DNA of 64,000 nucleotides from a virus, in IMG/VR virus record IMGVR_UViG_3300012347_000286, positions 3,266 through 67,265 of that record. The stretch is one strand, 5' to 3'. The notes under the pieces are model-generated. The model made no database searches. It was given only the letters and a program-made list of their open reading frames with translations, and was not told where the DNA came from. Positions 9,364-62,323 of the stretch are shown piece after piece. The position numbers and the translations under genes are program-made. Position 1 is the first letter of the stretch. Each line of letters opens with the position of its first letter.

Positions 9364-9783
9364 ATGTTGAATTGCTTCTTCTACATCATGGTGCTTACAC
9401 ACAATGGTAAAGTTGGATTTGGAATTACTGGCAATGTACACAATCGTATTTTCGACTACATTGCTGGTTCTGCTGAGTTACAATCGTTCAAGTATCTCTA
9501 TTACGGCTCCCGTGCTGACATTGCCGATATTGAGAAGAAACTCAAAGCTGAGTGGAAACGACACATGTGGAAAGTGTTCAAAGGTAACAAATGGACTCTT
9601 GAAATTCTTGACCCATCGTCAGGGCTGTCAGCAGAAGATGTACAAGAATGGGTAAACAATAAGATTGTTGAACTCAACTTACCTATCCGTGTCATTAAAG
9701 ATGAATGGTTGCCCTATCAAGGTGACAAGCGAGTTACCCGTAAATTCATTGAACTTAGCCCAGATATGTATCTTGAGCCTTGA
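9364..9783 (+). CDS. hypothetical protein (139 aa)
   Basis: Track ORF immediately after the upstream stop. Confidence 0.5.
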   Translation: MLNCFFYIMVLTHNGKVGFGITGNVHNRIFDYIAGSAELQSFKYLYYGSRADIADIEKKLKAEWKRHMWKVFKGNKWTLEILDPSSGLSAEDVQEWVNNKIVELNLPIRVIKDEWLPYQGDKRVTRKFIELSPDMYLEP

Positions 9784-9808
9784 CATTTTCTAAATATACG
9801 TATATAAT
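9780..9808 (+). promoter_or_regulatory. sigma70 promoter (TTGACA-17-TATAAT); FEN ATG lies only 6 nt downstream of the -10
   Basis: -35 at 9780-9785 and -10 at 9803-9808; ATG at 9815. Confidence 0.7.
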
Positions 9809-14090: not shown

Positions 14091-14263
14091 TGTTTGGCGT
14101 TGTATTAGGTTTCATCCTATTAATCTCTATCTATCTTGCTGGAGCTTTTATTGCATTGTTACGTCAAAACGGATATCGCTTTGTTGAAACATGTAAAGAT
14201 GTAGTTGAAGCTATTCAGGACATCAAAAATTACAAAGCAAATCAAGGCACTAAAGGGTCATGA
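14090..14263 (+). CDS. small membrane protein (57 aa), not in the ORF track
   Basis: TAATG coupling. Hydrophobic N-terminus MFGVVLGFILLISIYLAGAFIALL. Confidence 0.45.
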   Translation: MFGVVLGFILLISIYLAGAFIALLRQNGYRFVETCKDVVEAIQDIKNYKANQGTKGS

Positions 14264-14838
14264 TTACATACGTCCACACTAACATCTATAAGATTAGTGA
14301 GTATGCTAGACATTTGAAGTCATTAGAAAGTGATGACCGTTATTCACGTTTCGGTCACCCTGCTAGTGACTACAATATCGACCAGCTTATCTTACAAATG
14401 TGTTATCACCCCAAAGACCATGAATTATGGTATGCACGTGATGATGAAAAGCGTGTTGGTTGGGGACATATGGCTAAGAATGACGATGGTTCTTGGGAAC
14501 TTGCAGTATCAGTGGATAAAGAGTTTCAGCGTCAAGGCATTGCAGATAAATTACTAACAGAAATGATTGAATGGGCTAAGTTCCATCATATCCCAGAAGT
14601 TTACATGCACTGCATTGAAAACAACAAAGTCATTCAACATCTTGCTACCAAGCATGAATTGAAACTTAAAGAACGAGGCGATGGTGAACGTACTGCGGCA
14701 ATCGAAGTACCAGAACCTAGCTTAGTAGAAGTGAGCAACCAGTTGTTCAAAGAGCAAACGGAGATTGTGCAAGAGATTACTAGACTACGAGGTAAACTCG
14801 CGGGTCTATGGTTGAATCCAAATCACCAAACTGATTGA
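14260..14838 (+). CDS. GNAT-family acetyltransferase-like protein
   Basis: VDKEFQRQGIADKLL matches the Q/RxxGxG/A acetyl-CoA binding motif. Confidence 0.6.
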   Translation: MITYVHTNIYKISEYARHLKSLESDDRYSRFGHPASDYNIDQLILQMCYHPKDHELWYARDDEKRVGWGHMAKNDDGSWELAVSVDKEFQRQGIADKLLTEMIEWAKFHHIPEVYMHCIENNKVIQHLATKHELKLKERGDGERTAAIEVPEPSLVEVSNQLFKEQTEIVQEITRLRGKLAGLWLNPNHQTD

Positions 14839-16160: not shown

Positions 16161-16391
16161 ATGGAACTATCAGTTAAAGCAGGGGACAACATTCGTTATA
16201 CATCAGCCGCAGGCACACGAGTTGCTCAAGTTCGTAATGTCTCAATTAACCCAACTGCCCGCCCTGGACACTCTATTGCTTGGCTCAGTTTGTTCGTTCC
16301 AGCACAAAACGGTGGTAAATTTGATACTAATGTTACAATTCCCGCTGACGCAAGTTCTTTAAAAGCATTTAAAGTTGAGAAAATGGCTTGA
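16161..16391 (+). CDS. hypothetical small protein (76 aa); paralog of 15458..15700
   Basis: GGAG RBS. The track ORF 16038.. runs through the promoter. Confidence 0.55.
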   Translation: MELSVKAGDNIRYTSAAGTRVAQVRNVSINPTARPGHSIAWLSLFVPAQNGGKFDTNVTIPADASSLKAFKVEKMA

Positions 16392-16416
16392 CAATAAAAC
16401 GTTTTGGGTATATAAT
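16388..16416 (+). promoter_or_regulatory. sigma70 promoter, a near-identical copy of the 16099 element
   Basis: GGCTTGACAATAAAACGTTTTGGGTATATAATATACACATAGACAG. Confidence 0.75.
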
Positions 16417-22860: not shown

Positions 22861-22889
22861 TTGACAAATAACCCATTGTCTGCTATACT
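22861..22889 (+). promoter_or_regulatory. sigma70 promoter (TTGACA-17-TATACT)
   Basis: GGTTGACAAATAACCCATTGTCTGCTATACT. Confidence 0.65.
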
Positions 22890-24532: not shown

Positions 24533-25732
24533 ATGACTGATGAATCAAAACAACTAAACCATTGTAGTTTCTGCGGAGCAAGCAAAGAAGCAGTTAAAAA
24601 ATTAGTAGTAGGTGAAACTGCCGCTATTTGTAGTGACTGTATTGAACTTTGTGAGGACCTAATTGAGGACGAAATCTCGGAAGAACAGGAGACTACAAAT
24701 CCTGACTACGATCCTGAATCTATCAAAGAGTTTCTGGATCAGCATGTCATCGGTCAAAATGATGCTAAAACTGTATTGAGCGTTGCCATTGCAAACCATT
24801 ACAAGCGTATCAATCACCCACCAAAAGACTTAGAGATTCAAAAGGGAAACGTTCTTATCGTAGGGCCCACGGGTAGTGGTAAAACATTGCTTGCTAAGAC
24901 TGCTGCCAAGTTTCTCAAAGTGCCCTTTGTAGTCGCTGATGCAACTAGTTTGACAGAAGCCGGATACGTCGGTGATGATGTAGAATCCATGATATCAATG
25001 TTACTTAACGCGGCTGGGGGAGACAAAGAACTAGCAGAGCGCGGTATTGTATTCGTTGATGAAATTGACAAAATCGCCCGTAAGAGCGAAGGTTCTAGTA
25101 TCACACGTGACGTATCCGGCGAAGGCGTACAGCAAGCACTATTGAAGATGGTTGAAGGCACAACTTGTCGAGTACAAAGCTCCGGTGGACGCAAGCACCC
25201 AGGCGGTGATATGGCTGAAATCAACACAAAGAACATCCTCTTTATTGCAGGCGGTGCTTTTGTTGGATTGAAAGACGTTATCGGTAAAAGAACAAACAAC
25301 TCTGGCATTGGCTTCACTGCCGGTGTCAAGGATGCTAAGGTTGAAGGTGACTTGAGTAAAGTAACACCCGACGACTTGACTAAGTTTGGTATGATTCCTG
25401 AGTTTATCGGTCGTTTCACAACTACAGTAAGCATTAGCGAATTGACCAAAGAACAGTTAATCCACATTCTTACTGATGTTAAGAACAATTATGTTGCTCA
25501 ATATAAGTATTTGCTCAAGTTAGATGGAATCGAGCTAACCTTCACTAGTGATGCATTGGATGAACTAGCAGAACGTTGCTTAAAACTCAAAACAGGTGCT
25601 CGTGGATTGCACACTGAGATTGAACGTGTACTAATGCCCCATATGTATCGTACTAGATACTACCGCCAAAATGAAATTAAGATGCTAAATATAGATAAGG
25701 AGCAGGTTATAAACCCACAAGCTATTCTATGA
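24533..25732 (+). CDS. clpX: ClpX ATP-dependent protease ATPase subunit
   Basis: N-terminal C4 zinc finger (CSFCG...CSDCIELC), Walker A GPTGSGKT, GYVG pore loop, Walker B VDEIDK and IGF ClpP-docking loop. Confidence 0.9.
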   Translation: MTDESKQLNHCSFCGASKEAVKKLVVGETAAICSDCIELCEDLIEDEISEEQETTNPDYDPESIKEFLDQHVIGQNDAKTVLSVAIANHYKRINHPPKDLEIQKGNVLIVGPTGSGKTLLAKTAAKFLKVPFVVADATSLTEAGYVGDDVESMISMLLNAAGGDKELAERGIVFVDEIDKIARKSEGSSITRDVSGEGVQQALLKMVEGTTCRVQSSGGRKHPGGDMAEINTKNILFIAGGAFVGLKDVIGKRTNNSGIGFTAGVKDAKVEGDLSKVTPDDLTKFGMIPEFIGRFTTTVSISELTKEQLIHILTDVKNNYVAQYKYLLKLDGIELTFTSDALDELAERCLKLKTGARGLHTEIERVLMPHMYRTRYYRQNEIKMLNIDKEQVINPQAIL

Positions 25733-25950
25733 GCATAAAAGGCAGACGAGTACAAGTACATGACGGCAACGTTGAAAAAGCGTTGCGCAAATTTAAGAAG
25801 AAAATTCTTGAGCAAGGTCTTATCCAAGAGATACGTGACCGACAAGAATATGTGAAACCAACGACCAGACGCAAAGTTGCTGCGGGACAAGCGGAAAGTC
25901 GTTGGAAGAAACATCTACGTAGCCAACAGCTACCCCCAAAACAATACTAA
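25729..25950 (+). CDS. rpsU: ribosomal protein S21 (bS21) homolog
   Basis: VEKALRKFKKKILEQGLIQEIRDRQEYVKPTTRRK aligns with E. coli S21 ([32 protein letters not shown]). Confidence 0.8.
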   Translation: MSIKGRRVQVHDGNVEKALRKFKKKILEQGLIQEIRDRQEYVKPTTRRKVAAGQAESRWKKHLRSQQLPPKQY

Positions 25951-26056
25951 CCCAATAATATACAAATATTTTACGCAATCATGTAAAATATATAAATACG
26001 TTATAGATGCTTAACTGGTCTATAAGTTACAATCTTGCTTTTTAAAGGAGAAAAAT

Positions 26057-27937
26057 ATGAGCAAAGTCATCGGTATCGACCTCGGTACCACAAATTCATG
26101 CGTAGCCGTTATTGAAAACGGAATCCCCAAAGTTATTGAGAATTCAGAAGGTGCTAGAACAACACCATCTATCGTTGCTTACACAAGTGATGAAATTCTA
26201 GTAGGCGCAAGCGCAAAGCGTCAGGCAGTAACAAACCCAAAGAACACAGTATACGCAAGCAAGCGTTTAATCGGTCGCAAGTTCGCCGAAGAAGCTGTCC
26301 AAAAAGATATTAATTTGATGCCATACAAAATCGTTGCTAATGACAACGGTGATGCATGGGTTCAAGTTAACGAAGATAAGTTAGCACCTCCGCAAATCTC
26401 AGCAGAAGTATTGCGCAAGATGAAGAAGACTGCGGAAGACTATCTAGGTGAAGAAGTCACCCAAGCAGTTATCACAGTTCCAGCATACTTTAACGATAGT
26501 CAACGTCAAGCAACGAAAGATGCTGGTCGTATTGCTGGTCTAGAAGTATTGCGTATTATCAACGAACCAACAGCAGCCGCACTAGCATACGGTGTTGACA
26601 AGCAAGACAAGAAAGACCGTAAAGTCGCAGTCTATGACTTAGGTGGAGGTACGTTTGACGTATCTATCATTGAGTTGGCAGACGTTGATGGTGATAAGCA
26701 GATTGAAGTTCTATCAACAAACGGCGACACTTTCTTGGGCGGTGAAGATTTCGACCAACGCATCATGGATTACTTGGTTGAAGAGTTTAAGAAAGAGTCC
26801 GGCGTTGACTTGACTAAAGACGTTCTTGCATTGCAACGTTTGAAAGAAGCCGCAGAGAAGGCTAAGATTGAATTGTCAAGTTCACAAAGCACAAGTGTTA
26901 ACTTGCCATACGTTACAGCAGACGCATCAGGTCCTAAACACTTGAACGTTACAATCAATCGTGCTAAGTTGGAACAACTAGTTGATGAATTGATTCAACG
27001 TAGTCTTGCCCCATGTAAGCAAGCGATGAAGGATGCAGGCGTTACTGCAAGTGACATTGACGAAGTTATCTTAGTCGGTGGTATGACACGTATGCCAAAG
27101 GTGCAAGAAGTTGTTGAACAATTGTTTGGCAAAGCACCTCGCAAAGATGTTAACCCAGACGAAGCAGTTGCCGCTGGTGCAGCTATTCAAGGTTCTGTTC
27201 TAGCAGGTGACCGTACTGACGTTCTATTGCTTGACGTTACTCCACTATCATTGGGTATCGAAACGATGGGCAATGTGTTCTCAAAAGTTATCAACAAGAA
27301 TACAACTATCCCTACTAAGGCTTCACAGACTTTCAGTACAGCACAGGACAATCAACCTGCTGTTACAATCAAAGTAGGACAGGGTGAGCGTGAACTATTC
27401 CAATATAATAAAGTACTTGGTGAGTTCAACTTAGATGGTATTGCACCAGCACCCCGCGGTATGCCTCAAATCGAAGTTACGTTTGATATTGACGCAAACG
27501 GTATCATGCACATCAGTGCTAAAGACAAGGGTACAGGTAAAGAGAACAAAATCACTATCAAGTCTAACTCAGGTTTGACAGAAGCAGAGATTCAGCAAAT
27601 GGTTAAAGATGCTGAGGACAATGCAGAAGCAGATAAGAAACACGTTGAATTGGTACAAGCACGTAACGGTGCTGAAGGTACGTACAACACGTTTAAGAAA
27701 GACTTTGATTCATACAAGGATCAAGTAACAGAAGAAGAACGTACCAAAGCAGAAGAAGCATTGAACGCTATTCAAGAGGCACTTAAAGGTGAAGATGTAG
27801 AAGCAATTCAAAAAGCTACTACTGATTTGTATCAATCGATTGGTCCAATCACCGCTAAGAAGCACGAAGCAGAAGAGGCTGCAAAGCCAAAAGCTGATGA
27901 CAACATCACTGATGCAGAAGTTAAGGAGGCGGTATGA
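26057..27937 (+). CDS. dnaK: DnaK (Hsp70) chaperone
   Basis: [22 protein letters not shown] and [11 protein letters not shown] are Hsp70 signatures; full-length. Confidence 0.95.
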
Positions 27938-28386
27938 GCAACAGAGGCACTTTAACACTACGTTCAATAGACGTTCCTTCTATTCATAAATTTGGTATTG
28001 GTTTTGATTCAATGATAGATGAATTGATGCGAGTCAGTTCTGCCCAAACAACAAGTAACTATCCTCCTCATAACGTCATTAAGACAGGTGAGAATACTGT
28101 TCTGATTGAAATGGCAGTTGCAGGATTCGCAGAAGGTGAGATTAATATCTCCACTGAGAACAATATCCTTACTATCCATGGTCAGCAGTTCCGCAACGAA
28201 CCCGTTAACTATGAATATTTGCATCGAGGATTGAGTAGCAGAGACTTTACCCAAAACTTCAGATTAGCTGAACATGTTGAGGTAAAAGATGCTACAATCA
28301 AGAACGGCATTCTTACCATCTTACTAGAGCGTGATGTTCCGGAAGAAAAGAAGCCCAGAAGTATTGCTATTAATTTCAATAAATAG
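27934..28386 (+). CDS. small heat-shock protein (Hsp20/alpha-crystallin, IbpA-like)
   Basis: Alpha-crystallin domain pattern (GILTIHGQQ ... [11 protein letters not shown]); coupled to the dnaK stop. Confidence 0.75.
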
Positions 28387-28395
28387 TATAATATG

Positions 28396-28430
28396 AGCAT
28401 AGTGCGGGGATAGTCCCCGCACTCTTAACA
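28396..28430 (+). terminator. perfect hairpin (AGTGCGGGGA / TCCCCGCACT) after the sHSP gene; no T-run
   Basis: 10-bp stem with 4-nt loop. Confidence 0.45.
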
Positions 28431-28441
28431 GGTCTACATAT

Positions 28442-28750
28442 ATGGCACAATCAGATACCCAAGTGACAATCAAACCCAATCTTAAATTAACTGAACCACC
28501 TTTGTATAAGGTTATCTACATGAACGATGACACGACTACAATGGACTTTGTTGTCCGTAGTCTAATTGAACACTTCAACTATACTATGGAGACTTCTGAG
28601 AATATTACAACCAGTATTCACGAAGCCGGCTCTGCGGTTGTTGCAGTACTACCCTATGAAATTGCAGAACAAAAGGGCATTGAAGTAACGTTAGATGCAA
28701 GAAGTGAAGGCTTTCCCTTGCAAGTCAAAATCGAAGTTAGTGAAGGTTAA
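28442..28750 (+). CDS. clpS: ClpS-like adaptor protein
   Basis: YKVIYMNDDTTTMDFVVRSLIEHF parallels the ClpS core (V.LLNDDYTPMEFVV.VL...F). Confidence 0.7.
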   Translation: MAQSDTQVTIKPNLKLTEPPLYKVIYMNDDTTTMDFVVRSLIEHFNYTMETSENITTSIHEAGSAVVAVLPYEIAEQKGIEVTLDARSEGFPLQVKIEVSEG

Positions 28751-29439
28751 ATCGTCACTTCAATTCGTTTAGCATAATAGGGTTCCCTATCATGCTTTGG
28801 ATTATTTAAATAGTTGATACCGTTTATCATGGTATCAACTATTTTTTCATGTGTTCCGAAAACCCAATGTGATATCTTATGCTCAGTGTCAGCGTGAGTG
28901 ACATAATCTAAGGTAATATCAGTTAACGTACCCTTTTCTCCAAAGTACAATTTGTTAGAAGGTACGCAGTTTGATGCAATAATTATCTTCTTCACATCTA
29001 CGTGTAGTTGTAGTCGCTCAATGGTTTTTTCTAAGTAACTCATATCATCAAAGAAATGAGATTTTAAATCAAACTCATCCGCAGTAGACATACTTTCATA
29101 ATTTTTATACCAACCGTTGATTCCCACGATTGCTATCCCGTCAACGACTACTACGTTGTTATGTAAATATACTGCATTCCCGATACGCGAGGTCAAGTGC
29201 CCAATCGAATCGAGGGTGTCTTCTCTTGATTGTAAGTCTTTGTTTTCAAGGGCCCCGTCGATGAAGAATACACCTTGATATAATTTACTCAAGTGATGCA
29301 ATGCTTTAGCGACCGTAAAGATATCATCCGATAGATTACCGGCTACAATGCAGTACAGACTGGTAGGTTTTCCCTCCCAGTCAAATTCAGAATCGCTGAC
29401 TAGGTGTAAGTCGCTAATGATGTCAAATCCAAAAATCAT
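28747..29439 (-). CDS. putative metallophosphoesterase-like protein
   Basis: N-terminal DIISDLHL (D-x-H) and VAGNLSDD motifs; weak. Confidence 0.45.
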   Translation of the reverse strand: MIFGFDIISDLHLVSDSEFDWEGKPTSLYCIVAGNLSDDIFTVAKALHHLSKLYQGVFFIDGALENKDLQSREDTLDSIGHLTSRIGNAVYLHNNVVVVDGIAIVGINGWYKNYESMSTADEFDLKSHFFDDMSYLEKTIERLQLHVDVKKIIIASNCVPSNKLYFGEKGTLTDITLDYVTHADTEHKISHWVFGTHEKIVDTMINGINYLNNPKHDREPYYAKRIEVTI

Positions 29440-29492
29440 AATGTATTTATGAAAAAAGGGACCGAAGTCCCCTTTAAAGTAGCATATTTAGA

Positions 29493-29738
29493 TTATGCTT
29501 TTGGCTTTTTAGCAGCTGGCTTCTTTGCTGGGGCCTTTGCAGCTGGGGCTTTCGCCTTAGCTGGGGCTTTCGCTTTCGGTGCTGCTTTTGGCTTAGCTGG
29601 TGCCTTAGGTGCTGCCTTAGGTGCTGCTTCTGCAACAACGGGGGTAGCATTTACTGCTTCAACTTTAGTAACTTCTGCTACAACGGGTGTTGCAACAGGT
29701 TCGCTACTACCAAAAATCTTCTTTAGAAATGAAAACAT
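29493..29738 (-). CDS. Lys/Ala/Pro-rich histone-H1-like (AKP-repeat) DNA-binding protein (81 aa)
   Basis: AGGAG RBS on the minus strand; PKAAPKAPAKPKAAPKAKAPAKAKAPAAKAPAKKPAAKKPKA tail. Confidence 0.6.
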   Translation of the reverse strand: MFSFLKKIFGSSEPVATPVVAEVTKVEAVNATPVVAEAAPKAAPKAPAKPKAAPKAKAPAKAKAPAAKAPAKKPAAKKPKA

Positions 29739-29802
29739 GTTTTTCTCCTTGAACTACTATTTAGACGCATACTTACGTACATATATTTTTTTAAATAAGA
29801 GT

Positions 29803-30294
29803 ATGGCGCTTACTAATCTTAGTTTGTCGGAACTCATGGATTTGCCTTTACCCAGTGTAACTGTGCAGAAGCGTCTTCCTTTTCGCCCAACAAAGTACTT
29901 CCTACATCATGCGTATGAACTCATAAACTATGAGGTTTTCGGAAATACTATGTACAAAGCTACATTAGAACTACGTCCTAACTGTAGAAAGTACTGGGGA
30001 ATGTGTGAGGGGCATATAAAACCAGTGATGACTGGTAGCTACTGTAACATCATTATGATGGATAAATGGTTCTGCCCACAGTGGTTTATCACTACTCTAG
30101 CACACGAAATGGTGCATCAATATCAATGGGATGTGCTTGGTCCTGAAAGACAAGCTAATGGGAAAGATTGGTTAATGAGTCACGGTCCTAGCTTCTATGC
30201 ATTCAGAGAAGATTTAGAGCCACACAATATCTCATTAAAAACGGCGCATTCTCAGCGCCGTTGGTTTAAACATCAAGATTTGTTTAAGGCTTAA
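29803..30294 (+). CDS. SprT-like / WLM-type zinc metalloprotease domain protein
   Basis: HEMVHQYQW is an HExxH motif. The 5' part of the track ORF is antisense to the AKP gene and is rejected. Confidence 0.55.
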   Translation: MALTNLSLSELMDLPLPSVTVQKRLPFRPTKYFLHHAYELINYEVFGNTMYKATLELRPNCRKYWGMCEGHIKPVMTGSYCNIIMMDKWFCPQWFITTLAHEMVHQYQWDVLGPERQANGKDWLMSHGPSFYAFREDLEPHNISLKTAHSQRRWFKHQDLFKA

Positions 30295-31451
30295 CGTTTA
30301 GCACGTGTAGCACGTTCGCTACCTACTTCAGGTTCTACTTCAGGTTTAGCTTCCTTAGAAACCTTCTGTTTAGCGTTAGGGTTACTTGTAACGTTTCCGT
30401 TAACGTCAACAAGAACAACGTCCTTGTCACCCTTCTTACCGATACCACGAGCTAATGTAACACCCAATGTACGCAATCCTGGAAGAGGATTGCTACGTGT
30501 ACTGTCGTTACGAATCAACCAAACCATCAAGTGACTTTCAGGAATGTCTTCTTTGCTAGTGATAACAGCATGACAGTCAACAGTTACATTGTTGCCTTCT
30601 TGCACGAAATGCTGAGGCTTGAATGTCTGAATGACGACTCCGCCCTTTGGATTCAAGTCGCTACCAAAGATAGCTGATAATCCTTCTTCTGGAGTAGGCT
30701 CAACAACGATTTCTTTGTCTAACTTGTAAACTGGATTAGTCGCACCTGTCTTCTTGTCTACTGTCTCGCTAATCTTGATTAGATTGACTGCACCTTGTTT
30801 GACAAGTTTCTTGATGATTTCTTTAGCCTTCTCACCGAACAAGCTATCAGCACTTTCCCACATGTCAGCATTAACTTTCTTAATACTGATAGGCAACGCA
30901 CCCTTTTGACTACGCAACACAACGTCAGCTTTTTTGCGGTTTGCAGTGTCACGTCCTGCAACGTCAACGTTTGTGCAGTTTTTGATAGCCATTTTCTTAC
31001 CACGAGGGTCTTTGAATGTAACGTTGACTGAGCCGTACTTGTCAACAACTGATTGAAGAATACTAGCCATTTCCAATTCGTTAGCAACGCCAGCAGACTT
31101 CTCACCCTGACCACCTGAATCTTTGATGACAATAGAAACAGGACTGTTTTGGAAGATGATGCCGCCCAAACTGCTTAGTTTAGGGTTATCACTGTAAGTT
31201 GGTTGATACTCTTTAAGTGTCTTTTGAAGACCTGCAAGAATCTCGCCCAAAATCTGATTACGGAACTCATCTTTGCGTTGACCTTCGGGAATCTGAACTA
31301 AGACTTCAATCTTGTTGCTTGCCTTATCCTTGATTTCCTCGTAGCCGATTTTAGCTAGTGCTGCGACAACTGTTGGTTTGGTCAAAGTCGTAGCGATTGG
31401 GCTAGCTGCTTCAACCAAAGTAGTTGCAAATTCATAGTGTCTCATGTACAA
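30291..31451 (-). CDS. hypothetical protein (386 aa) with Lys-rich C-terminal tail
   Basis: Track ORF convergent with the SprT-like gene; no family recognised. Confidence 0.6.
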   Translation of the reverse strand: MYMRHYEFATTLVEAASPIATTLTKPTVVAALAKIGYEEIKDKASNKIEVLVQIPEGQRKDEFRNQILGEILAGLQKTLKEYQPTYSDNPKLSSLGGIIFQNSPVSIVIKDSGGQGEKSAGVANELEMASILQSVVDKYGSVNVTFKDPRGKKMAIKNCTNVDVAGRDTANRKKADVVLRSQKGALPISIKKVNADMWESADSLFGEKAKEIIKKLVKQGAVNLIKISETVDKKTGATNPVYKLDKEIVVEPTPEEGLSAIFGSDLNPKGGVVIQTFKPQHFVQEGNNVTVDCHAVITSKEDIPESHLMVWLIRNDSTRSNPLPGLRTLGVTLARGIGKKGDKDVVLVDVNGNVTSNPNAKQKVSKEAKPEVEPEVGSERATRAKR

Positions 31452-31533
31452 TCTCTCATGTAGTTAGTGAAGTGATAATTATATCACCGATTTAGTATTT
31501 ATCGCAAATTATTTTTAACAAAGGCAAAAAAAA

Positions 31534-32127
31534 ATGAGTTTAGTTCCAATCGTAGTAGAATCTACTTCCAAAGGTGAGCGCAGTTACGACATTTACAGTC
31601 GGTTGATGCGTGACCGTGTTATCTTGCTTGAGGGCGAAGTTCACGACCAAATGGCAAACTTGATTGTTGCCCAACTACTTTTCTTGGAATCAGAAGATGC
31701 GACTAAAGACATTAGCATGTACATTAACTCTCCGGGTGGTTCGGTTACTGCTGGTATGGCCATCTATGATACTATGCAATTTATTGCCCCCGACGTTCAA
31801 ACAATCGTCATGGGTCAGGCTTGTTCTATGGGTAGTCTTCTCGCTCAGGGAGGGGCAGCTGGAAAAAGATTCATGCTCCCAAACGCACGACACATGATTC
31901 ATCAGCCCTCTGGTGGCGCACGTGGTATGCAAAGTGACATTGAGATTTCTTACAAAGAGATTACATATTTGAAAACTCGTTTGACTGAAATCTACGTTGA
32001 ACACAATAGCAAGGGCAAGACCTACGCAGAGTTTGAGAAGGATATGGATCGTGACACATTCATGTCAGCACAACAAGCGTTAGACTATGGTCTGATTGAC
32101 AAGATTGTGACAAAACGAAACGGTTGA
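31534..32127 (+). CDS. clpP: ClpP protease proteolytic subunit
   Basis: [10 protein letters not shown] (Ser), MIHQP (His) and RDTFMSA (Asp) form the catalytic triad. Confidence 0.9.
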
Positions 32128-34173: not shown

Positions 34174-34377
34174 ATGTCTTACATTCGATTCAATCACGAC
34201 CCAAAGTGGGGCCCTCGCAAAGGACTTGAGGGCCCATTCCATTATCCCTCAGGTGTAGTACTTTATTATGACCCAAAAGCAGGTGAGTACTACGATCCTA
34301 CTACTGACTTCTATGTTCCCCATGAAGACGTTGAGGAACTGAAAAACTCTATCTTCCAACTACTAAAAAAGGCTTGA
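34174..34377 (+). CDS. hypothetical small protein (67 aa)
   Basis: GGAG RBS. Confidence 0.5.
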   Translation: MSYIRFNHDPKWGPRKGLEGPFHYPSGVVLYYDPKAGEYYDPTTDFYVPHEDVEELKNSIFQLLKKA

Positions 34378-34402
34378 CATTAATTGCTTTTGGGCATATA
34401 AT
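34375..34402 (+). promoter_or_regulatory. sigma70 promoter (same family, 16-nt spacer)
   Basis: GGCTTGACATTAATTGCTTTTGGGCATATAATAGATACTTAGACAG. Confidence 0.7.
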
Positions 34403-37197: not shown

Positions 37198-37198
37198 T

Positions 37199-37227
37199 TG
37201 ACATTTAACCATAACTGTGATATAATC
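37199..37227 (+). promoter_or_regulatory. sigma70 promoter (TTGACA-17-TATAAT)
   Basis: GATTGACATTTAACCATAACTGTGATATAAT. Confidence 0.7.
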
Positions 37228-47119: not shown

Positions 47120-50100
47120 ATGGCTATTCCAGGACAAGCAAATATTAATATTGGTGCAGAAAATCAAGTTGCAGGAAGCGACAACTTGTATGAAGCATTT
47201 CACACCATTCAAAACAACTTCACAACATTATTCAATGCCTCTAGCACTCTAACTACGTTTAGAGCCGGAGAAGGTATTCAAGTATCAGCGAATGCAAGCA
47301 ACGGCGTTGTCGATATCAACAACACTGGGGTAACTAAAATTACAGCAGGAACCGGAGTCACTATCTCTAGTGCAAACGGTAATGTAACTATTTCAACCGC
47401 TGCTCAAGGTCAGACTGGAGTTACACGAGTTGGACTAACGTCTTCAACGTTAAATGTAGGTGGCGTTTCTGGTAGTAATGTAGTTAGCTCAGGTACATTC
47501 ACTGTCGATTTACCCCGAGTGCCCACTAGCAGCAGTTTTGCAACCGGGTCTTACATTGCACCAAACGTAACAGTAGACGAGTTCGGTAGAGTTACAGCCA
47601 TTGCGAACGGTGTAGGTGTAGGTACTGTGACCAGCGTAGGTATTAATCCTGGAAAAGGTATTGCAGTTACCGGTGGTCCGATTGTTGATTCGGGTGCAAT
47701 TGATGTTATCAATACAGGTGTCACTAGCTTACAAGCGGGTACTGGTATTAGACTATCCGGATCCAATGGGGATATAACAGTATCTGCACTACAAGTAACT
47801 TCCGGTACTGTCACACAAATAGGATTAACTAGTAATACGTTGTCAGTTACTGACGGAACAGTGACCTCATCAGGCACTATCAACGTAGAGCTTCCAGTAA
47901 ACTTATCATCTAATAATTTGATACTGAGCGGAAACGCAAACGTATCCGGTAACGTGAATACGTACAAGTTAGTTTCTACATTCTCTAACGTGCAAACAGA
48001 CTTGACTATCGGTGGCGGTCCAAGCCCCGGGTCACTAACATTTAAAACACAAAATAACTCAGGAAACTACGTTTCATTAATTCCACCTGTTAACACAGCA
48101 GTAGCTGGATTAGTTTTCATGTTACCGAATACGTTGGGATCAAACTCACAAGTATTAGGTACTGACGGCGCAGGAACAATGAACTGGAGAATTCCTCCTG
48201 CTGCAGGTACAAACACGCAGATTCAATTCAATGACCCTGCAAGTAACGGAGCTCCGCAATTAGCCGGACATGCAAACCTTACGTTCAATAAAAACACCGG
48301 TCTATTAACATCACAGCAACTATCTGTTACTGCAAACGCAAACGTCGGTAACTTGAGCACTTCAGGAACTGTGACCGCATCGAGATTTATATCAAACGTT
48401 GCCACAGGCACAACACCGTTTACTGTTACCAGTACTACTATGGTAACTAACTTGTATTCTCAATACGCAAACTCTATCGTTGCTAATGCACAACCTAACA
48501 TCACGAGCGTGGGTAGACTATCTAGCCTTACTGTAGGCAATGCAACTGCAAACGTTGTGTTAGGGAACAGTACTATTACTACGTCTGATATCACTGCTAG
48601 TAATGCGTTTGTGTTGACCAATACTGCTTCATTATTATTCAATACTCAAACAAGTAATACCAAATTTACAGCGTTGCAACCACCAGATACTATTTTAGCC
48701 GGTGCCGGACTATATGCAAATGGAACCCCGGGTGGCAATGCATTCATGTTCTGGAATCTACCGAACACATGGGGCAACGTGAATCAATTCCTGACCACTG
48801 ATGGTTCAGGAACAATGCAGTGGTCTAATGTTCCTGCAAGTTCACCGGGATTTGACGGTGCAAATATAATCGCAATTTCTAACACAACCGTTTCTACAAC
48901 AACTACAACGGGTGCGTTGACTGTTGGTGGCGGGGTCGGTGTAGAAGGTAACGTAAATGTCGGTGGCAACTTAGCATTAGCTACAGGTGGCATCAATGTA
49001 GGCGGTGGTAACTTAACTGTAACTCAAACTGGTATGCTAGGTGCTAGGAATCTCACGTTGTCCAGCGGTGCTAACATTTCAGGTGATGTTAATTTTCTAG
49101 CATTCAGTGATGTACGATTTGCTGGCAATATTGCTGGTAATGTTTCCTTCAGAGGAGATTATTTTAACTTTGGTAGCAATGCTGTTATTTCAGGTGGTGG
49201 GTATATCACTAGTAAAGACATTACTGTAAATGGTAGAGTTGAAGCGACCGGTAATATTACAAGCAGTAGCTATGTTGACGGTCAGTATGTCAAAGCTAGT
49301 ACAGCATTATACGTATACGGGCAGTCACAACTAGGAAACGTCGGCAACGTGTATATTACAGGCGGCACTTCAGGACAAGTATTGTCCACTGATGGGACTG
49401 GTAACTTGTCATGGATCTCTGCTTCAAGTGGCGGTGGTAGTAGTTTTGATGCATCACAACAATTAACTATCACAAACACAAACACATCTACTAGTTACAT
49501 TACCGGTGCTGTAAGAGTTGCAGGTGGCATGGGCGTAATCGGCAACATCAACGCTGGCGGTAATGTTACATCTACGATTACTGCAAGCAATATTACCGGA
49601 AACGTAAGTTACTCAAGCTATTCAGGTGCATTTACAAATACAACAGGTGAGTGGATGCAGTCTGGTCTATATTATGACGGAACAAATATCATTATCAATG
49701 AAAGGTTCTGGAAAGACCCCATCGGTTTCGCTCAAGTCAAATCTGCAATATCAAACGGTGTTCAGTTTGGAGTTGACCCAGGTGGTTACAGTATATTACC
49801 AGTGACTCCGTCAGGTGACTGGGTAGAACAGACGATGTACGGGGCGGGTATATGGACTATTACTGTAGGTACTATTAGTGGTGTACCGAGTGGAACACTA
49901 GCAGTTATATCTATCAGCAATATAACGCTTAATGATGGTGGGTTAGTTTCTGCTAAGTTAGTATCAGGTCAAGTTCTTAAAACAGCGTTGAACGGTCAAT
50001 TAATAACTAATAAAATTTCTTCACACAATGCCGATGTTACGATATCTACGTTTGACGTAATGTTTAATGCATATCGTAAGATTTATCTAGGTGGTTTTGG

Positions 50101-50431
50101 TTCTGCAACTATCGCTCTAGATGACACCATGAAAATGGACAGTCAAGGTATAATTCAGAGAACTAATGGCAACATTACAATCATGCCGAACATTCAGACA
50201 GCCGATGACAATATTATAATGTCTCCTGCTACTGTTAGTGCAAAATTTGTAGCCACAATAGGAACTACCTTTTCTGCACTAAGTAATCAAGGAACACCTG
50301 CTGCAGGTCAACGTGCATTTATCACTGATGGTGACTTAGCCGCAGCCGGTAACTTTGGCGCAGTTGTAGGCGGAGGAGGCTCGAATGGAGTGCCCGTTTA
50401 CTATGATGGAAGTACTTGGCGCATTGGATAA
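47120..50431 (+). CDS. large repeat-rich tail fiber-like protein (1103 aa)
   Basis: G/T/S/N/V-rich beta-repeat composition and an internal ~64-aa (~190-nt) duplication. Confidence 0.65.
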   Translation: MAIPGQANINIGAENQVAGSDNLYEAFHTIQNNFTTLFNASSTLTTFRAGEGIQVSANASNGVVDINNTGVTKITAGTGVTISSANGNVTISTAAQGQTGVTRVGLTSSTLNVGGVSGSNVVSSGTFTVDLPRVPTSSSFATGSYIAPNVTVDEFGRVTAIANGVGVGTVTSVGINPGKGIAVTGGPIVDSGAIDVINTGVTSLQAGTGIRLSGSNGDITVSALQVTSGTVTQIGLTSNTLSVTDGTVTSSGTINVELPVNLSSNNLILSGNANVSGNVNTYKLVSTFSNVQTDLTIGGGPSPGSLTFKTQNNSGNYVSLIPPVNTAVAGLVFMLPNTLGSNSQVLGTDGAGTMNWRIPPAAGTNTQIQFNDPASNGAPQLAGHANLTFNKNTGLLTSQQLSVTANANVGNLSTSGTVTASRFISNVATGTTPFTVTSTTMVTNLYSQYANSIVANAQPNITSVGRLSSLTVGNATANVVLGNSTITTSDITASNAFVLTNTASLLFNTQTSNTKFTALQPPDTILAGAGLYANGTPGGNAFMFWNLPNTWGNVNQFLTTDGSGTMQWSNVPASSPGFDGANIIAISNTTVSTTTTTGALTVGGGVGVEGNVNVGGNLALATGGINVGGGNLTVTQTGMLGARNLTLSSGANISGDVNFLAFSDVRFAGNIAGNVSFRGDYFNFGSNAVISGGGYITSKDITVNGRVEATGNITSSSYVDGQYVKASTALYVYGQSQLGNVGNVYITGGTSGQVLSTDGTGNLSWISASSGGGSSFDASQQLTITNTNTSTSYITGAVRVAGGMGVIGNINAGGNVTSTITASNITGNVSYSSYSGAFTNTTGEWMQSGLYYDGTNIIINERFWKDPIGFAQVKSAISNGVQFGVDPGGYSILPVTPSGDWVEQTMYGAGIWTITVGTISGVPSGTLAVISISNITLNDGGLVSAKLVSGQVLKTALNGQLITNKISSHNADVTISTFDVMFNAYRKIYLGGFGSATIALDDTMKMDSQGIIQRTNGNITIMPNIQTADDNIIMSPATVSAKFVATIGTTFSALSNQGTPAAGQRAFITDGDLAAAGNFGAVVGGGGSNGVPVYYDGSTWRIG

Positions 50432-59319: not shown

Positions 59320-60720
59320 TTATTTGCGAGAGTTTGCTCGGACTTCGTCAAAAGTGTAAGACTTTGTAAGACTACCATCTTCGTAGACAGTAACCAATGC
59401 GTCAGTCCAACCACCAATGCCTTTGTCTGACCAACCTGTTGGGGCTGATACACCAGATGCATATTCGCCACCACTGTTAGTGAACAAACGAACACGACCA
59501 CCTTTACTACGTTTGCCTGAGTCAGTGATAGGATCCTTGACTACATCGATCCATTTACCATCGACCTGGACACTTGAGCATTTCATTGCGAAACGTTGGG
59601 TGTCGCGGTCCACGATTTGCAACAACGCTCCACCCATGCCAAAAGCAATATTATCAGCACTGTACCCAAGAGCCATAAAAGCACCGAGAATCCCGCGAAT
59701 AGTAAGTTCATTTACACCATCTCCTTGAATGAGGCGAACGTTGTTCAACACTTTAAAGCCTTTAGAGTTTTTCACACTACCGAACTTCATGTCCAGAATT
59801 TGTACCAACTCTTTGTTGACTGTGATAGGATCACCTGAGTCAGGACGAATCACAACCACTGCACCACTATCAATAACTTGTTGACGCAATTCTTCACCCC
59901 AGATTTTACTGGCTGCGTTGAAAATGTCGTAGCTATCAGATACAAACGCAACGATAGAGCCGGGCTTACCGTATTGTGTTAACATGTTGCTGTAGGCTTT
60001 TGCTTCGTTTTCACGGCCCCAACTTGTTACAGTGCTGTGCTCCATTGCAGGAATGCTGTAACCGCAAACGTCAGCATCATAATACTCCATAGCGTACAGA
60101 ATACCAGTAATAGTGTCGGTACCCATAAAGTTAATGAGATGTCCCGCACCACCAATCCCAGCGCTTTCAAGAGAGCTAACGCCCCGAGCACCGAAATCGT
60201 GTAACTTAAAATCAATACCACTTGGGTCTCCTGTCTTTTCTAAGTACTCGGCAATCACTTTCTTGATTGTGTAAGATTGTGTTGCCACTGTTGTGCCATA
60301 CCACACTGCACGAAGCAATGATGTTTCAAGCCAAGTTGTCAACCAGAAACAGTTAGGGTCTGTGTTCTCAATTGTTGCAAGTACGTTCGAGACCGGAACA
60401 ACAGAGCCTTCGGGTACCGCTCTAATAACAACTGGGAGATATCCGTTGTGGTTGTCAAGAATGTACTGCCATCCTTCTCGGTTAAAGGGGACACCGTGTG
60501 CTGTGAGGATTTTGTCTGCGGTGTCAATGTCAGCTTGGGTAATTGGGCTGAGTAAGTATTCTTTGATAAAAGCCTGTAATCCGAAGAATACCGTTCTATC
60601 ATAACGGCCCCCTCGTGACTCAATGTACGAGTATACACCTGTAGTTCCTACTGGATATTGTTTGAACATTGATACTTTATAGCTATCTGTGTTCAGGATG
60701 ATGTTTTTAGCGAGTTTCAT
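59320..60720 (-). CDS. nadV: nicotinamide phosphoribosyltransferase (NAMPT / NadV)
   Basis: N-terminal NIILNTDSYKVSMFKQYP and overall length are typical of NadV (as in KVP40-type phages). Confidence 0.9.
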   Translation of the reverse strand: MKLAKNIILNTDSYKVSMFKQYPVGTTGVYSYIESRGGRYDRTVFFGLQAFIKEYLLSPITQADIDTADKILTAHGVPFNREGWQYILDNHNGYLPVVIRAVPEGSVVPVSNVLATIENTDPNCFWLTTWLETSLLRAVWYGTTVATQSYTIKKVIAEYLEKTGDPSGIDFKLHDFGARGVSSLESAGIGGAGHLINFMGTDTITGILYAMEYYDADVCGYSIPAMEHSTVTSWGRENEAKAYSNMLTQYGKPGSIVAFVSDSYDIFNAASKIWGEELRQQVIDSGAVVVIRPDSGDPITVNKELVQILDMKFGSVKNSKGFKVLNNVRLIQGDGVNELTIRGILGAFMALGYSADNIAFGMGGALLQIVDRDTQRFAMKCSSVQVDGKWIDVVKDPITDSGKRSKGGRVRLFTNSGGEYASGVSAPTGWSDKGIGGWTDALVTVYEDGSLTKSYTFDEVRANSRK

Positions 60721-60775
60721 AATAAAGTTCCTTTATTTAAGTTTTGCCTAGAGTCTATCTCTAGGACTTGTTATC

Positions 60776-60804
60776 AGTATAACACAACATTATTATTGTG
60801 TCAA
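60776..60804 (-). promoter_or_regulatory. sigma70 promoter (minus; TTGACA-17-TATACT)
   Basis: Reverse complement reads GGTTGACACAATAATAATGTTGTGTTATACT. Confidence 0.65.
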
Positions 60805-60992
60805 CCTTCTTTGGGTTCCATATCAGTTGGATCGAATACATATCCACCTTTGATTCCAAGAATAGGGTCAACCATAAAGTTTGGAACCCATTTGTCCTTC
60901 TTTCCAATCAGTGAGTAAATTGGGAGTGACTTACCGTCTACTACCATTTCACCTACTTGTTTGGTTTCGTATTTGTATTCCCACCAACCCAT
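60801..60992 (-). CDS. hypothetical protein (63 aa)
   Basis: GGGGG RBS; its stop lies within the downstream -35. Confidence 0.45.
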   Translation of the reverse strand: MGWWEYKYETKQVGEMVVDGKSLPIYSLIGKKDKWVPNFMVDPILGIKGGYVFDPTDMEPKEG

Positions 60993-60993
60993 A

Positions 60994-61455
60994 TCAGCCC
61001 CCAAATTCTACCAAAGTGACTGAGCCACCTTTTGATGCGACACCGTATGCAAATGCCTCAATCATTCCAATGATTGTTTCACTGTCGCCACCTGCAAGTC
61101 CCATACCAATGTAGGGCAAGCCGATTCGTTTGTCACCGTATGCATGAATGAGTTTTTGCAAAATCAATTCAAATGCCACGTACTCAAACACATCGGTACC
61201 TTGACTCATATTGTACTGAGTGTAAGCGTTAATAATCAGAAATGTACCCTGGTCATATTCTGTCCAGTTACCTAACTTCATGTATTCACCGCGCTCAGTC
61301 AGATTGTCAATTTCAGCACACAGAGGATATCGTTCACGAATTTCTCGTGCGATGCCACCGCCCATTGTGTTAAAGCAATTACATCCCTGCACCACAACGT
61401 CAAACTCACCTGCTTCTGCTAAGTCTAGCAGATTACCTTTTGCATGTTTTAGCAT
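60994..61455 (-). CDS. macro-domain protein (ADP-ribose binding/processing)
   Basis: VVQGCNCFNTMGGGIAREI matches the macro-domain NAANxxLxxGGGV diphosphate-binding loop. Confidence 0.75.
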   Translation of the reverse strand: MLKHAKGNLLDLAEAGEFDVVVQGCNCFNTMGGGIAREIRERYPLCAEIDNLTERGEYMKLGNWTEYDQGTFLIINAYTQYNMSQGTDVFEYVAFELILQKLIHAYGDKRIGLPYIGMGLAGGDSETIIGMIEAFAYGVASKGGSVTLVEFGG

Positions 61456-61993
61456 ACCTTTTTCCTTGAGTAAAGAATTCCCAACCGCGCAATATAACGC
61501 TAAAACTAAACAACAGTATCATATCAGTAGCAAAGTCACCAACCATCATGCTTATACCTGAATCAAGACAATCGTGAACCAACACACCATTCAAAACCCC
61601 GAATAACGCGGAAATGAGTGATAGCATCATAATGTGATAATATTTCAAGTTATCGTATGTCGCAGATAATTTAAATATCTTGTTGGTTATTAACAATGCA
61701 ATCATAGGAGCACAAGCAAACACTATGACATTCAAAACCATGATATAGATTGTACCAGTCTTATCCATAAGATAAAGTGTTCCCAAAATCACACCAGTTA
61801 AGCCATACCATCCAAATACTAGTATCATCAATAGTTTGATAAAGGATGGTATAAAGATTAAGGCTGCATGTGGATGACGTTGAACCCATGTATCATTGAA
61901 CAAGAATTCATTAAAATTATACGAAGCTACTAGTATAAGAGCTATACATAAAATTTGTAATAAACGAAGTGGATTTATGCTTGTTTTAAACAT
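61433..61993 (-). CDS. polytopic membrane protein (186 aa, about 6 TM)
   Basis: Hydrophobic segments throughout. Confidence 0.55.
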   Translation of the reverse strand: MFKTSINPLRLLQILCIALILVASYNFNEFLFNDTWVQRHPHAALIFIPSFIKLLMILVFGWYGLTGVILGTLYLMDKTGTIYIMVLNVIVFACAPMIALLITNKIFKLSATYDNLKYYHIMMLSLISALFGVLNGVLVHDCLDSGISMMVGDFATDMILLFSFSVILRGWEFFTQGKRYAKTCKR

Positions 61994-62307
61994 GCCGTGA
62001 GTTTTTCAAAATAATCAATTGTTAATTGAGTAGGTTGCACTATCTTGGATCTACCGTCTTTGGTAGACTGTTCAAGTTTGATAACTCCCTTTGTCTGCAA
62101 TGTAACAAGCCGACGTTGAATAGTTGATTCGCTGAGACCATTAGCCAAATTCGCGGCATCCAGCACAGTAACTTCCTCACTAGAGTGCCACTTAGCAGTT
62201 AGTGACAGCAATAGCCTATCTTCAACTGGATCAAGTTGGGGCCATGCTGGAGTTGCTTCCTTCACTGCCCCCATTAAATTAATAAATTTTGCGTATGATG
62301 ATATCAT
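61975..62307 (-). CDS. putative winged-helix transcriptional regulator
   Basis: AAAGGAG RBS; LANGLSESTIQRRLVTLQTKGVIK resembles a MarR-type recognition helix and wing. Confidence 0.45.
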   Translation of the reverse strand: MISSYAKFINLMGAVKEATPAWPQLDPVEDRLLLSLTAKWHSSEEVTVLDAANLANGLSESTIQRRLVTLQTKGVIKLEQSTKDGRSKIVQPTQLTIDYFEKLTACLKQA

Positions 62308-62323
62308 TATACTACTCCTTTAG

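Follow-up and report, generated by a model that had tools for sequence, protein, structure and literature searches.

A phage homologue of ribosomal protein bS21, very likely coupled to clpX, in the proteostasis gene cluster of large aquatic phages

The S21 gene and its junction with clpX

Here we analyzed a stretch of viral DNA of 64,000 nucleotides (IMG/VR record IMGVR_UViG_3300012347_000286, positions 3,266 to 67,265; the whole stretch is called the window below, and coordinates refer to it), concentrating on a gene that encodes a homologue of ribosomal protein bS21 (S21) and lies between clpX and dnaK (Table 1). A preliminary description of this DNA had proposed both the identity of the product and its place in a Clp/DnaK gene cluster, and profile searches bore out both, with ClpX upstream and DnaK downstream at the scores given in Table 1. 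The 73-residue product matched the Pfam family Ribosomal_S21 (PF01165) with 49.9 bits against a curated cut-off of 27 (E = 2.6e-13) and the NCBIfam equivalog TIGR00030 (S21p) with 53.1 bits against a cut-off of 28.95, it was assigned to phrog_21469 ('ribosomal protein S21') in PHROG, and a phmmer search against all PDB chains returned 33 matches that were exclusively bS21 or mitochondrial bS21m (best E = 6e-7). Judged by its sequence, this open reading frame (ORF) is a genuine bS21 homologue.

The protein is a single domain with 20 Lys/Arg against 7 Asp/Glu residues (net charge about +13), and it is full length in comparison with E. coli bS21, having 2-3 additional residues and no large extension or extra domain. 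The core motif ALR(K/R)FK(K/R)...R.R..Y/F.KPT..RK is retained, and the C-terminal residue is aromatic in every copy of the family, as in E. coli bS21. The C-terminal tail is otherwise unlike that of cellular S21, with an invariant W59 and LPxK and a less basic composition. Alignment of 14 diverse copies showed 30 invariant columns out of 73, and the median ratio of nonsynonymous to synonymous substitution rates (dN/dS) was 0.097 over the 241 pairs with unsaturated dS, synonymous sites being saturated in further pairs. These values indicate that the phage S21 is under purifying selection and is selectively maintained.

Table 1. Features of the window discussed in the text, with their positions and the evidence for each.
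Feature	Position	Strand	Evidence or remark
Sigma-70-consensus promoter	22861..22889	+	TTGACA-17-TGnTATACT, 11/12; upstream of the first lipoprotein gene
Two predicted lipoprotein genes, 202 and 332 aa	22921..24524	+	Signal peptide followed by Cys (..LITGCSS.., ..LVSACAS..)
clpX, 399 aa	24533..25732	+	Pfam zf-C4_ClpX N-domain and AAA_2; NCBIfam NF003745 equivalog, 514 bits against 359
ATGA overlap of S21 start and clpX stop	25729..25732	+	Termination-reinitiation signature
rpsU-like gene, bS21, 73 aa	25729..25950	+	ATG start, TAA stop; profile matches and conservation
Conserved, putatively regulatory spacer, 106 nt, 5' untranslated region of dnaK/hsp20	25951..26056	+	AT-rich promoter-like stretch, hairpin I, CUUGCUU/Shine-Dalgarno
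dnaK, 626 aa	26057..27937	+	HSP70, 858 bits
IbpA-like hsp20, 150 aa	27934..28386	+	Pfam HSP20; best NCBIfam match IbpA, 116 bits, below the equivalog cut-off of 212
clpS adaptor homologue, 102 aa	28442..28750	+	Pfam ClpS, 84 bits against 23
Terminator-like hairpin	28808..28844	+	16-bp stem then T-run, after clpS; pattern scan only
clpP, 197 aa	31534..32127	+	Pfam CLP_protease, E = 1.4e-79; NCBIfam NF001368, 309 bits against 249
infA, IF-1, 71 aa	46312..46527	+	Shine-Dalgarno-led; TIGR00008, 102.9 bits against 61.15

Relatives of the S21 protein at 60-83% identity were found on at least 383 viral contigs of IMG/VR. In the best 80 loci among these contigs, clpX lay immediately 5' of S21 and hsp20-clpS lay 3' of it in every case (80/80). 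Because those loci had been selected through S21 itself, the synteny test was repeated on 80 related viral loci found with ClpX as a probe independent of S21, and here S21 followed immediately behind clpX in 76. The remaining four (L398, L414, L418 and L421) carry clpX, then the usual spacer and then hsp20, without S21; the contig of one of them (L418) retains IF-1 (L236). S21 is nearly, not absolutely, universal in this phage family, and conservation in related phages, on which the preliminary description had staked its proposal, was thus found both in the number of contigs carrying the gene and in the ClpX-anchored loci.

The junction between clpX and S21 is itself conserved. The four-nucleotide ATGA overlap recurs in 45 of 51 distinct related junctions and one further junction overlaps by 7 nt, while a gap of 1 or 9 nt parts the two genes in the other five, and there a strong Shine-Dalgarno (SD) sequence, AAGGAGG or GGGAGG, always stands just upstream of S21. 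In the window there is no SD at a normal working distance from the S21 ATG; a TAAGGAG located 26 nt upstream was considered and rejected, being too distant and lying inside the coding sequence for the conserved ClpX C-terminus. This reciprocal pattern, of overlap without an SD or an SD where the overlap has been lost, makes it very likely that S21 is translationally coupled to clpX by termination-reinitiation, and S21 synthesis would then depend on the translation of clpX. The coupling had been described as extending from clpX through S21 to dnaK: the clpX side of that claim very likely holds, whereas S21 is not coupled to dnaK, which lies beyond a gap of 106 nt and has a separate SD (AAAGGAG at 26044-26050).

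Upstream of this junction, the nearest strong promoter precedes the first of two predicted lipoprotein genes, and a promoter matching at least 11/12 positions was found at the equivalent place in 18 of 50 full-length related loci. No comparably strong promoter was found between it and S21, and it is likely the start of a unit comprising the two lipoprotein genes, clpX and S21. The scan accepted matches of at least 11/12 to the sigma-70 consensus TTGACA-17-TATAAT, and the window holds 27 of them, 16 being perfect (12/12), compared with 2.0 ± 1.4 in shuffled windows (examples at 9780-9808, 16388-16416, 34374-34402, 37198-37226 and, on the minus strand, 53726-53698). These promoters belong to a recurring cassette in which spacer bases (TTGACAATAAA...TTTGG) are conserved and the beginning of the leader partly so; this cassette is also abundant in related contigs. 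By analogy with other lytic phages, we infer that the consensus promoters are early ones used by the host RNA polymerase.

The association with Clp genes extends far beyond the closest relatives. A scan of species-representative genomes for S21, with search patterns biased to the phage motif ALRKFKKK, returned 18 loci, and the five closest S21 proteins (44-56% identity) sit beside part or all of the phage cassette orf520-ClpX-S21-Hsp20-ClpS. The five contigs (L081-L085), one of them 335 kb long, are binned in metagenome-assembled genomes (MAGs) labelled Haliscomenobacter, Chitinophagales, Polynucleobacter, Neomarinimicrobiota and Rickettsiales; because they carry the phage cassette they are most likely mis-binned phage genomes, and their labels therefore give no signal of the host. 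True bacterial S21 in this motif-biased scan reached about 40-46% identity over the aligned parts, with one short match of 36 residues at 61%, and a broad search of representative sequences with S21 gave 915 matches, the best at 57% identity; an exact-sequence look-up yielded two short contigs and no others. Among cultured phages, Salicola phage SCTP-2 (L100, MF360958.1, 192454-192714) encodes a bS21 homologue with 37% identity, gp193, that is labelled 'hypothetical protein', in the order ClpX (gp194)-S21 (gp193)-ClpS (gp192), and Vibrio phage 2.275.O has IF-3-S21-ClpS-like as gp044-046. Because synteny persists in the MAG-binned contigs and in these two phages at low S21 identity (only 37-40% to the window protein for SCTP-2 and 2.275.O), the S21-Clp linkage appears to be old and vertically kept.

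Neighboring genes, relatives and probable host

The genes around S21 form an island of proteostasis functions. The two lipoprotein genes had no Pfam match and are syntenic with clpX-S21 in most relatives. Downstream of S21, the window DnaK is 68-69% identical to gammaproteobacterial DnaK sequences in the phage collection. Its gene is a variable part of the island, since of the 80 S21-anchored loci only roughly 40% have it ahead of hsp20 (it is absent there in about 60%), and among the ClpX-anchored loci it is present at this position in 37 of 80 and missing in 42. The hsp20 ATG overlaps the dnaK stop codon (ATGA at 27934-27937) behind an AAGGAGG SD, and clpS comes next behind hsp20 in nearly every locus that extends far enough. 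The hairpin after clpS is the probable end of the transcription unit. Further downstream, the ORF at 31534..32127 was considered as a prohead protease; the prohead-protease model stayed below its cut-off and the product is instead a true ClpP, which the preliminary description had not pointed out. To judge from these profile matches, clpP gives the phage a complete ClpXP, and the island from 24533 to 32127 comprises ClpX, DnaK, Hsp20, ClpS and ClpP. ClpS normally serves ClpA, and ClpA was not found in the window.

The spacer that separates S21 from dnaK is among the best-conserved non-coding stretches of the family, with either dnaK or hsp20 next, and its alignment (46 sequences) contains 16 invariant columns. 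Hairpin I (26001-26025) shows compensatory changes in six of its eight predicted pairs. The sequence CUUGCUU (26034-26040) is invariant, lies 3-5 nt before (A)AGGAG in 46/46 sequences and can pair with the SD AAAGGAG leaving a bulged G. The ROSE class of RNA thermometers is defined by a U(U/C)GCU that faces the SD and leaves a bulged G, ahead of a gene for a small heat-shock protein, and the elements of that layout, namely the sequence opposite the SD, the bulged G and a following IbpA-like hsp20 or dnaK inserted ahead of it, are present here. The Rfam model ROSE_3 (RF02523) aligned over its full length to the spacer of a relative of the hsp20 type (L035:6223-6331) with 28.2 bits and E = 2e-4, the gathering score being 43; no match at gathering level was obtained in 12 relatives, and the window copy, which is of the dnaK type and has a degenerate first hairpin, gave no ROSE hit at E <= 10. 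The spacer thus resembles a ROSE-type RNA thermometer and is a candidate for one ahead of the phage hsp20/dnaK. We regard dnaK and hsp20 as a separate translational unit behind this ROSE-like putative thermosensor. The simplest reading of its history is that an ibpA-like gene was acquired by the phage lineage along with the thermosensing leader of that gene, and that dnaK was inserted later behind the leader in one sub-clade. In phages, the RNA thermometers known so far number only a handful (PMC11182007).

Three other candidates for this spacer were rejected. A T4-type late promoter was considered because of TATAAATA, which is present there but shows no enrichment in the window (2 copies against 4.1 expected) and occurs in only 12 of 54 related spacers. 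The Rfam 'freshwater-2' RNA was the top match of the window spacer with 19.6 bits against a gathering score of 49.9, and scored lower still in a relative. An intrinsic terminator between S21 and dnaK was dismissed, there being no U-run after hairpin I.

Other contents of the window are those of a large phage. They include NAMPT, an NMNAT-Nudix protein, QueE-like and PTPS-like proteins, an ATP-dependent ligase, an RNase H-like 5'-3' exonuclease, UvdE, a dCMP deaminase and superoxide dismutase (SOD), together with many ORFs without matches. The QueD/PTPS-like and QueE-like genes (1481-2999 and, on the minus strand, 59320-63343) suggest a 7-deazaguanine pathway, and NAMPT with NMNAT-Nudix suggests NAD salvage, both being typical auxiliary modules of large phages. 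A GNAT acetyltransferase is encoded at 14260-14838, its best NCBIfam match being RimI (ribosomal protein S18-alanine acetyltransferase) with 31 bits against a cut-off of 86, and its product is probably just a generic GNAT. No virion or structural gene was recognized among the scanned ORFs of the window, including all large ORFs near S21, and a megablast of 12 kb around S21 against 50,697 GenBank phage records gave no match. The nearest cultured relatives of the exonuclease belong to PA5oct and XaC1, jumbo phages of Proteobacteria, at no more than 47% identity, and some related contigs bearing S21 are 330-370 kb long. Together with the 383 IMG/VR contigs that carry relatives, this gene content places S21 on a viral genome, not on a cellular contaminant. 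The S21 family forms a deep phage-only clade with fixed synteny in big aquatic phages. Relatives occur across many different environmental metagenome samples, two of the distant MAG-binned ones having marine-looking isolate labels, and the phage S21 family may not be restricted to marine settings.

With regard to the host, the TTGACA-17-TATAAT promoters, the AGGAG SDs, the IbpA-like Hsp20 with its ROSE_3-like leader and the similarity of DnaK to gammaproteobacterial sequences argue for a phage of Proteobacteria-type hosts and not of Bacteroidetes, in which promoters and SD use differ from this pattern.

Leader lengths, Shine-Dalgarno use and IF-1

The preliminary description had drawn attention to a phage IF-1 gene and to several genes that seemed leaderless or nearly so, and both observations stand, the second on promoter geometry. 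The IF-1 gene is listed in Table 1. A search for its relatives gave 104 related viral stretches, and between the two top-80 lists S21 and IF-1 share at least 25 contigs, in which the genes lie roughly 10-30 kb apart (about 20 kb here). Right after infA and a sodB-like gene, an ORF of 1103 amino acids (47120-50431) has no Pfam, NCBIfam or PHROG match. One 524-kb contig, IMGVR_UViG_3300027749_002876 (L187, L225, L299 and L309), holds two diverged and distant copies each of the IF-1 and phosphoesterase genes, and may be a chimera of two related phage genomes.

In four places of the window a -10 box ends exactly 6 nt before an ATG, at 9815 (exonuclease), 37233 (phosphoesterase), 6500 (UvdE) and, on the minus strand, 53691 (an ORF of 53 codons), and several window genes are accordingly predicted to be leaderless; weaker cases of this type are found at 44452 and 29449. 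At the last of these, the start codons of two divergent genes (230 amino acids on the minus strand, 281 on the plus strand) lie at 29439 and 29449, only 9 nt apart, with CATAAT ending 6 nt before the plus-strand ATG, so that each promoter and any leader lies inside the opposite gene. We measured how far the first ORF-opening ATG lies from the -10 box in the window and 160 related loci, and for the 245 distinct strong promoters found there the leader lengths were bimodal, with 26 at 5-7 nt, 136 at 28-34 nt and none at 8-16 nt. Whether the leaderless layout is a fixed property of a gene was examined in two cases. The 6-nt layout of the exonuclease gene is kept in about 25 of 61 distinct relatives, which form one sub-clade and vary in their spacer bases, the others being leadered with an SD, whereas for the phosphoesterase gene it is rare (the window and 3 of 61 distinct relatives). 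The layout is thus a stable property of the exonuclease in one sub-clade and not of the phosphoesterase, and because it varies in this way among relatives we take promoters to come and go and to move around.

The leaderless class is a minority. Of 110 naive starts, 45 are preceded by an SD core, compared with 8% of control positions, and most window genes, including dnaK, hsp20 and infA, have canonical SD leaders. Published passages also report leaderless transcripts in the jumbo phages phiKZ and AR9. The proposal that leaderless initiation depends on S21 is not supported by the literature consulted. The only direct evidence there, from a cryo-electron microscopy preprint, is that the leaderless lambda cI mRNA is handled more easily when ribosomes lack uS2 and bS21, bS21 propping the anti-SD (PMC10491246), which points in the opposite direction, and a review gives it no support, listing S1 and S2 as mild inhibitors of leaderless translation, IF3 as an inhibitor and IF1 and IF2 as stimulators, with IF1 strongly stimulating 70S scanning (PMC9031893). 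Because bS21 supports the anti-SD that leadered mRNAs use, extra bS21 would be expected to serve the SD-led majority of the phage's own genes. For the phage IF-1, a benefit both to leaderless messages and to re-initiation where cistrons overlap, as many do, is plausible.

Possible roles of the phage S21

Taking these results together, we favor, with moderate confidence, a model in which a functional bS21 is made early and in fixed ratio with ClpX, enters the host 30S subunit and there sustains or tunes SD-dependent initiation. S21 would be expressed early by the host RNA polymerase as part of a takeover module that joins proteostasis genes (ClpXP, ClpS, an IbpA-like Hsp20 and sometimes DnaK) to initiation genes (S21 and IF-1), and it would be synthesized by ribosomes that have just finished ClpX, which would fix the S21:ClpX ratio. 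The protein would then enter the 30S subunit, replacing or adding to host bS21, and support the anti-SD end of the 16S rRNA, so that SD-dependent initiation is kept running or tuned on the many short SD-bearing leaders of the phage. bS21 assembles late and is one of the dynamic, readily exchanged proteins of the ribosome, a kind that tends to be virus-encoded, and the bS21 of a pelagiphage was incorporated into E. coli 70S ribosomes, the sole precedent (PMC6375957).

Several points weigh against this model. Ribosomes with the pelagiphage bS21 showed an in vitro activity of only about 5% (PMC6375957), so that a helper role is not established. The absence of S21 from four of the 80 ClpX-anchored loci makes it dispensable in some lineages, and its early timing is read solely from the promoter consensus. 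At the level of structure, the AF2 model of the phage protein (helices at 15-28, 31-39 and 46-67) has moderate confidence, with a predicted local distance difference test (pLDDT) score of 74, and the top Foldseek match against PDB, B. subtilis bS21 (7qv1_b), was not significant (E = 2.1), a weak match being expected because bS21 is folded only on rRNA. Finally, the tight link to ClpX is left unexplained by the model and by its rivals alike.

The rival that survives best, which we nonetheless regard as unlikely, is host shut-off, and it is the nearest workable form of the original idea of a bias toward phage mRNAs. Under it, the phage S21 weakens or blocks the use of the anti-SD on host ribosomes, and phage messages that are leaderless or share the common leader escape. 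The low in vitro activity of ribosomes carrying viral bS21 agrees with such an effect (PMC6375957), as do the distinct leaderless class (26 of the 245 strong promoters at 5-7 nt and none at 8-16 nt), the departure of the S21 C-terminal tail from the cellular one (W59, LPxK, less basic) and the presence of a phage IF-1, IF-1 being reported to stimulate leaderless translation and 70S scanning (PMC9031893). However, more than half of the strong promoters of the family drive SD leaders, among them those of dnaK, hsp20, infA and most early genes, and because these SD-led genes are the majority a block of the anti-SD would hurt the phage itself. Moreover, the better handling of leaderless cI was seen with ribosomes that lack uS2 and bS21, not as an effect of having bS21 (PMC10491246), and the low activity with pelagiphage S21 may reflect a mismatch with E. 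coli.

Distinctly unlikely, in our judgement, is an extraribosomal role in which the S21-like protein acts with the Clp machinery, as a ClpX/ClpS adaptor, a substrate-mimic or an RNA-binding partner that, for example, marks host ribosomal proteins or ribosomes for remodelling. Such a role would accord with the strict translational coupling to ClpX, with the persistence of Clp adjacency at 37-40% S21 identity in the jumbo phages SCTP-2 (ClpX, ClpS) and 2.275.O (ClpS-like), with a complete phage ClpXP plus ClpS within 7 kb, and with Hsp20 and Clp proteases being among the commonest neighbors of phage bS21 in 900 genomes (PMC9723584). The protein, however, conserves the entire bS21 signature, passes the equivalog-level model and has no extra domain or extension, and adjacency of phage genes often means shared timing and not physical interaction. 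No case of bS21 acting as a Clp adaptor is known to us, which also counts against this role.

Very unlikely, taken as one joint claim, is that the phage clears host bS21 or other exchangeable initiation components by ClpXP and replaces them with its own S21 ('degrade and replace'), and that the retooled ribosomes together with the phage IF-1 favor leaderless messages and the 28-34-nt leaders of the repeated promoter-leader cassette; its support is confined to the deep, tight ClpX-S21(-ClpS) linkage and the bimodal leader architecture. That S21 is a mere passenger, a host rpsU captured recently without adaptive function, is effectively refuted: multiple independent transfers of bS21 from host to virus have been inferred for other phages (PMC6375957), but here dN/dS is about 0.1 with saturated synonymous sites, position and ATGA coupling are fixed across hundreds of contigs and deep relatives, and the closest species-representative matches are the mis-binned phage cassettes (44-56%), bacterial S21 lying at about 40-46% with the single 36-residue match at 61%.

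Returning to the model of S21 as an early ribosomal component, its setting can be compared with the known systems. Viral bS21 had been mentioned from the outset as reported in phages, and it is documented at scale (PMC6375957, PMC7162821, PMC9723584). Mizuno et al. (2019) counted 1,310 genomes and contigs with viral bS21, 90% of them aquatic, and hypothesized that the viral protein replaces that of the host (PMC6375957). Members of that class (PHROG 21469; for example, Pelagibacter phage HTVC008M) are, like the window protein, small basic bS21 proteins encoded in large aquatic phage genomes, under similar purifying selection (pN/pS of 0.10 in PMC6375957 against a dN/dS of about 0.10 in the window family), and for both a replacement of host bS21 in the 30S subunit is proposed. 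The window S21 is nevertheless only 41-45% identical to the proteins of cultured pelagiphages and Methylophilales phages, and whereas the HTVC008M gene looks recently taken from its host, the window gene belongs to a deep phage-only clade with fixed synteny.

The bS21 of huge phages that also encode IF1/IF3 (Al-Shayeb et al. 2020, PMC7162821) resembles the window case, as far as the passages of that paper on bS21 go, in the large genome, the combination of S21 with an initiation factor and the canonical SD; it differs by a long basic/aromatic N-terminal extension, absent from the window S21, which has only its few extra residues relative to E. coli, and those same passages do not describe coupling to ClpX. 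Freshwater Bacteroidetes phages (Chen et al. 2022, PMC9723584) are likewise large environmental phages with a conserved bS21, and the survey of bS21 neighbors in 900 genomes found Hsp20 (127) and Clp proteases (50 and 47) frequently (PMC9723584). In those phages, however, bS21 is late and on the reverse strand in a terminase/capsid/portal module (PMC9723584), whereas the window gene is co-directional with its neighbors, between clpX and dnaK and behind a sigma-70 promoter; it falls outside the Bacteroidetes-phage clades with late expression. SCTP-2 and Vibrio phage 2.275.O, both jumbo phages of Gammaproteobacteria, have a local S21-Clp order similar to that of the window, unlike which they have no Hsp20 or DnaK between S21 and ClpS. 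Passages on the bS21 paralogues of Francisella tularensis, which are cellular and not viral, describe a second form of bS21 that alters which mRNAs are efficiently translated (PMC9578407, PMC13374519), and to that extent these paralogues offer a working model for what a second S21 can do.

What was already known, therefore, is the phage bS21 itself, including Hsp20 and Clp genes as its frequent neighbors. What the analysis adds is the ATGA coupling to clpX and its conservation, a probable early promoter, the deep ClpX-S21-ClpS synteny, the unannotated S21 of SCTP-2 and the variants without S21; the ROSE-like element is possibly fresher than the S21 gene itself, and the bimodal leader lengths are likewise among the fresher parts. 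Phage bS21 is the commonest viral ribosomal protein. The family described here may serve as a clean test case, with hundreds of contigs, a fixed position, a likely early promoter, coupling to ClpX, IF-1 as a partner and the S21-less variants (4/80), and because its mRNAs follow two sharply separated designs, leaderless or with short SD leaders, one reporter pair could reveal an effect of bS21 on initiation preference. By itself the result leaves current ideas unchanged. It sharpens the picture of where one large class of phage bS21 genes would be expressed and in what way, and it amends the view, taken over from the Bacteroidetes phages, that bS21 in phages belongs to the late genes of the structural module.

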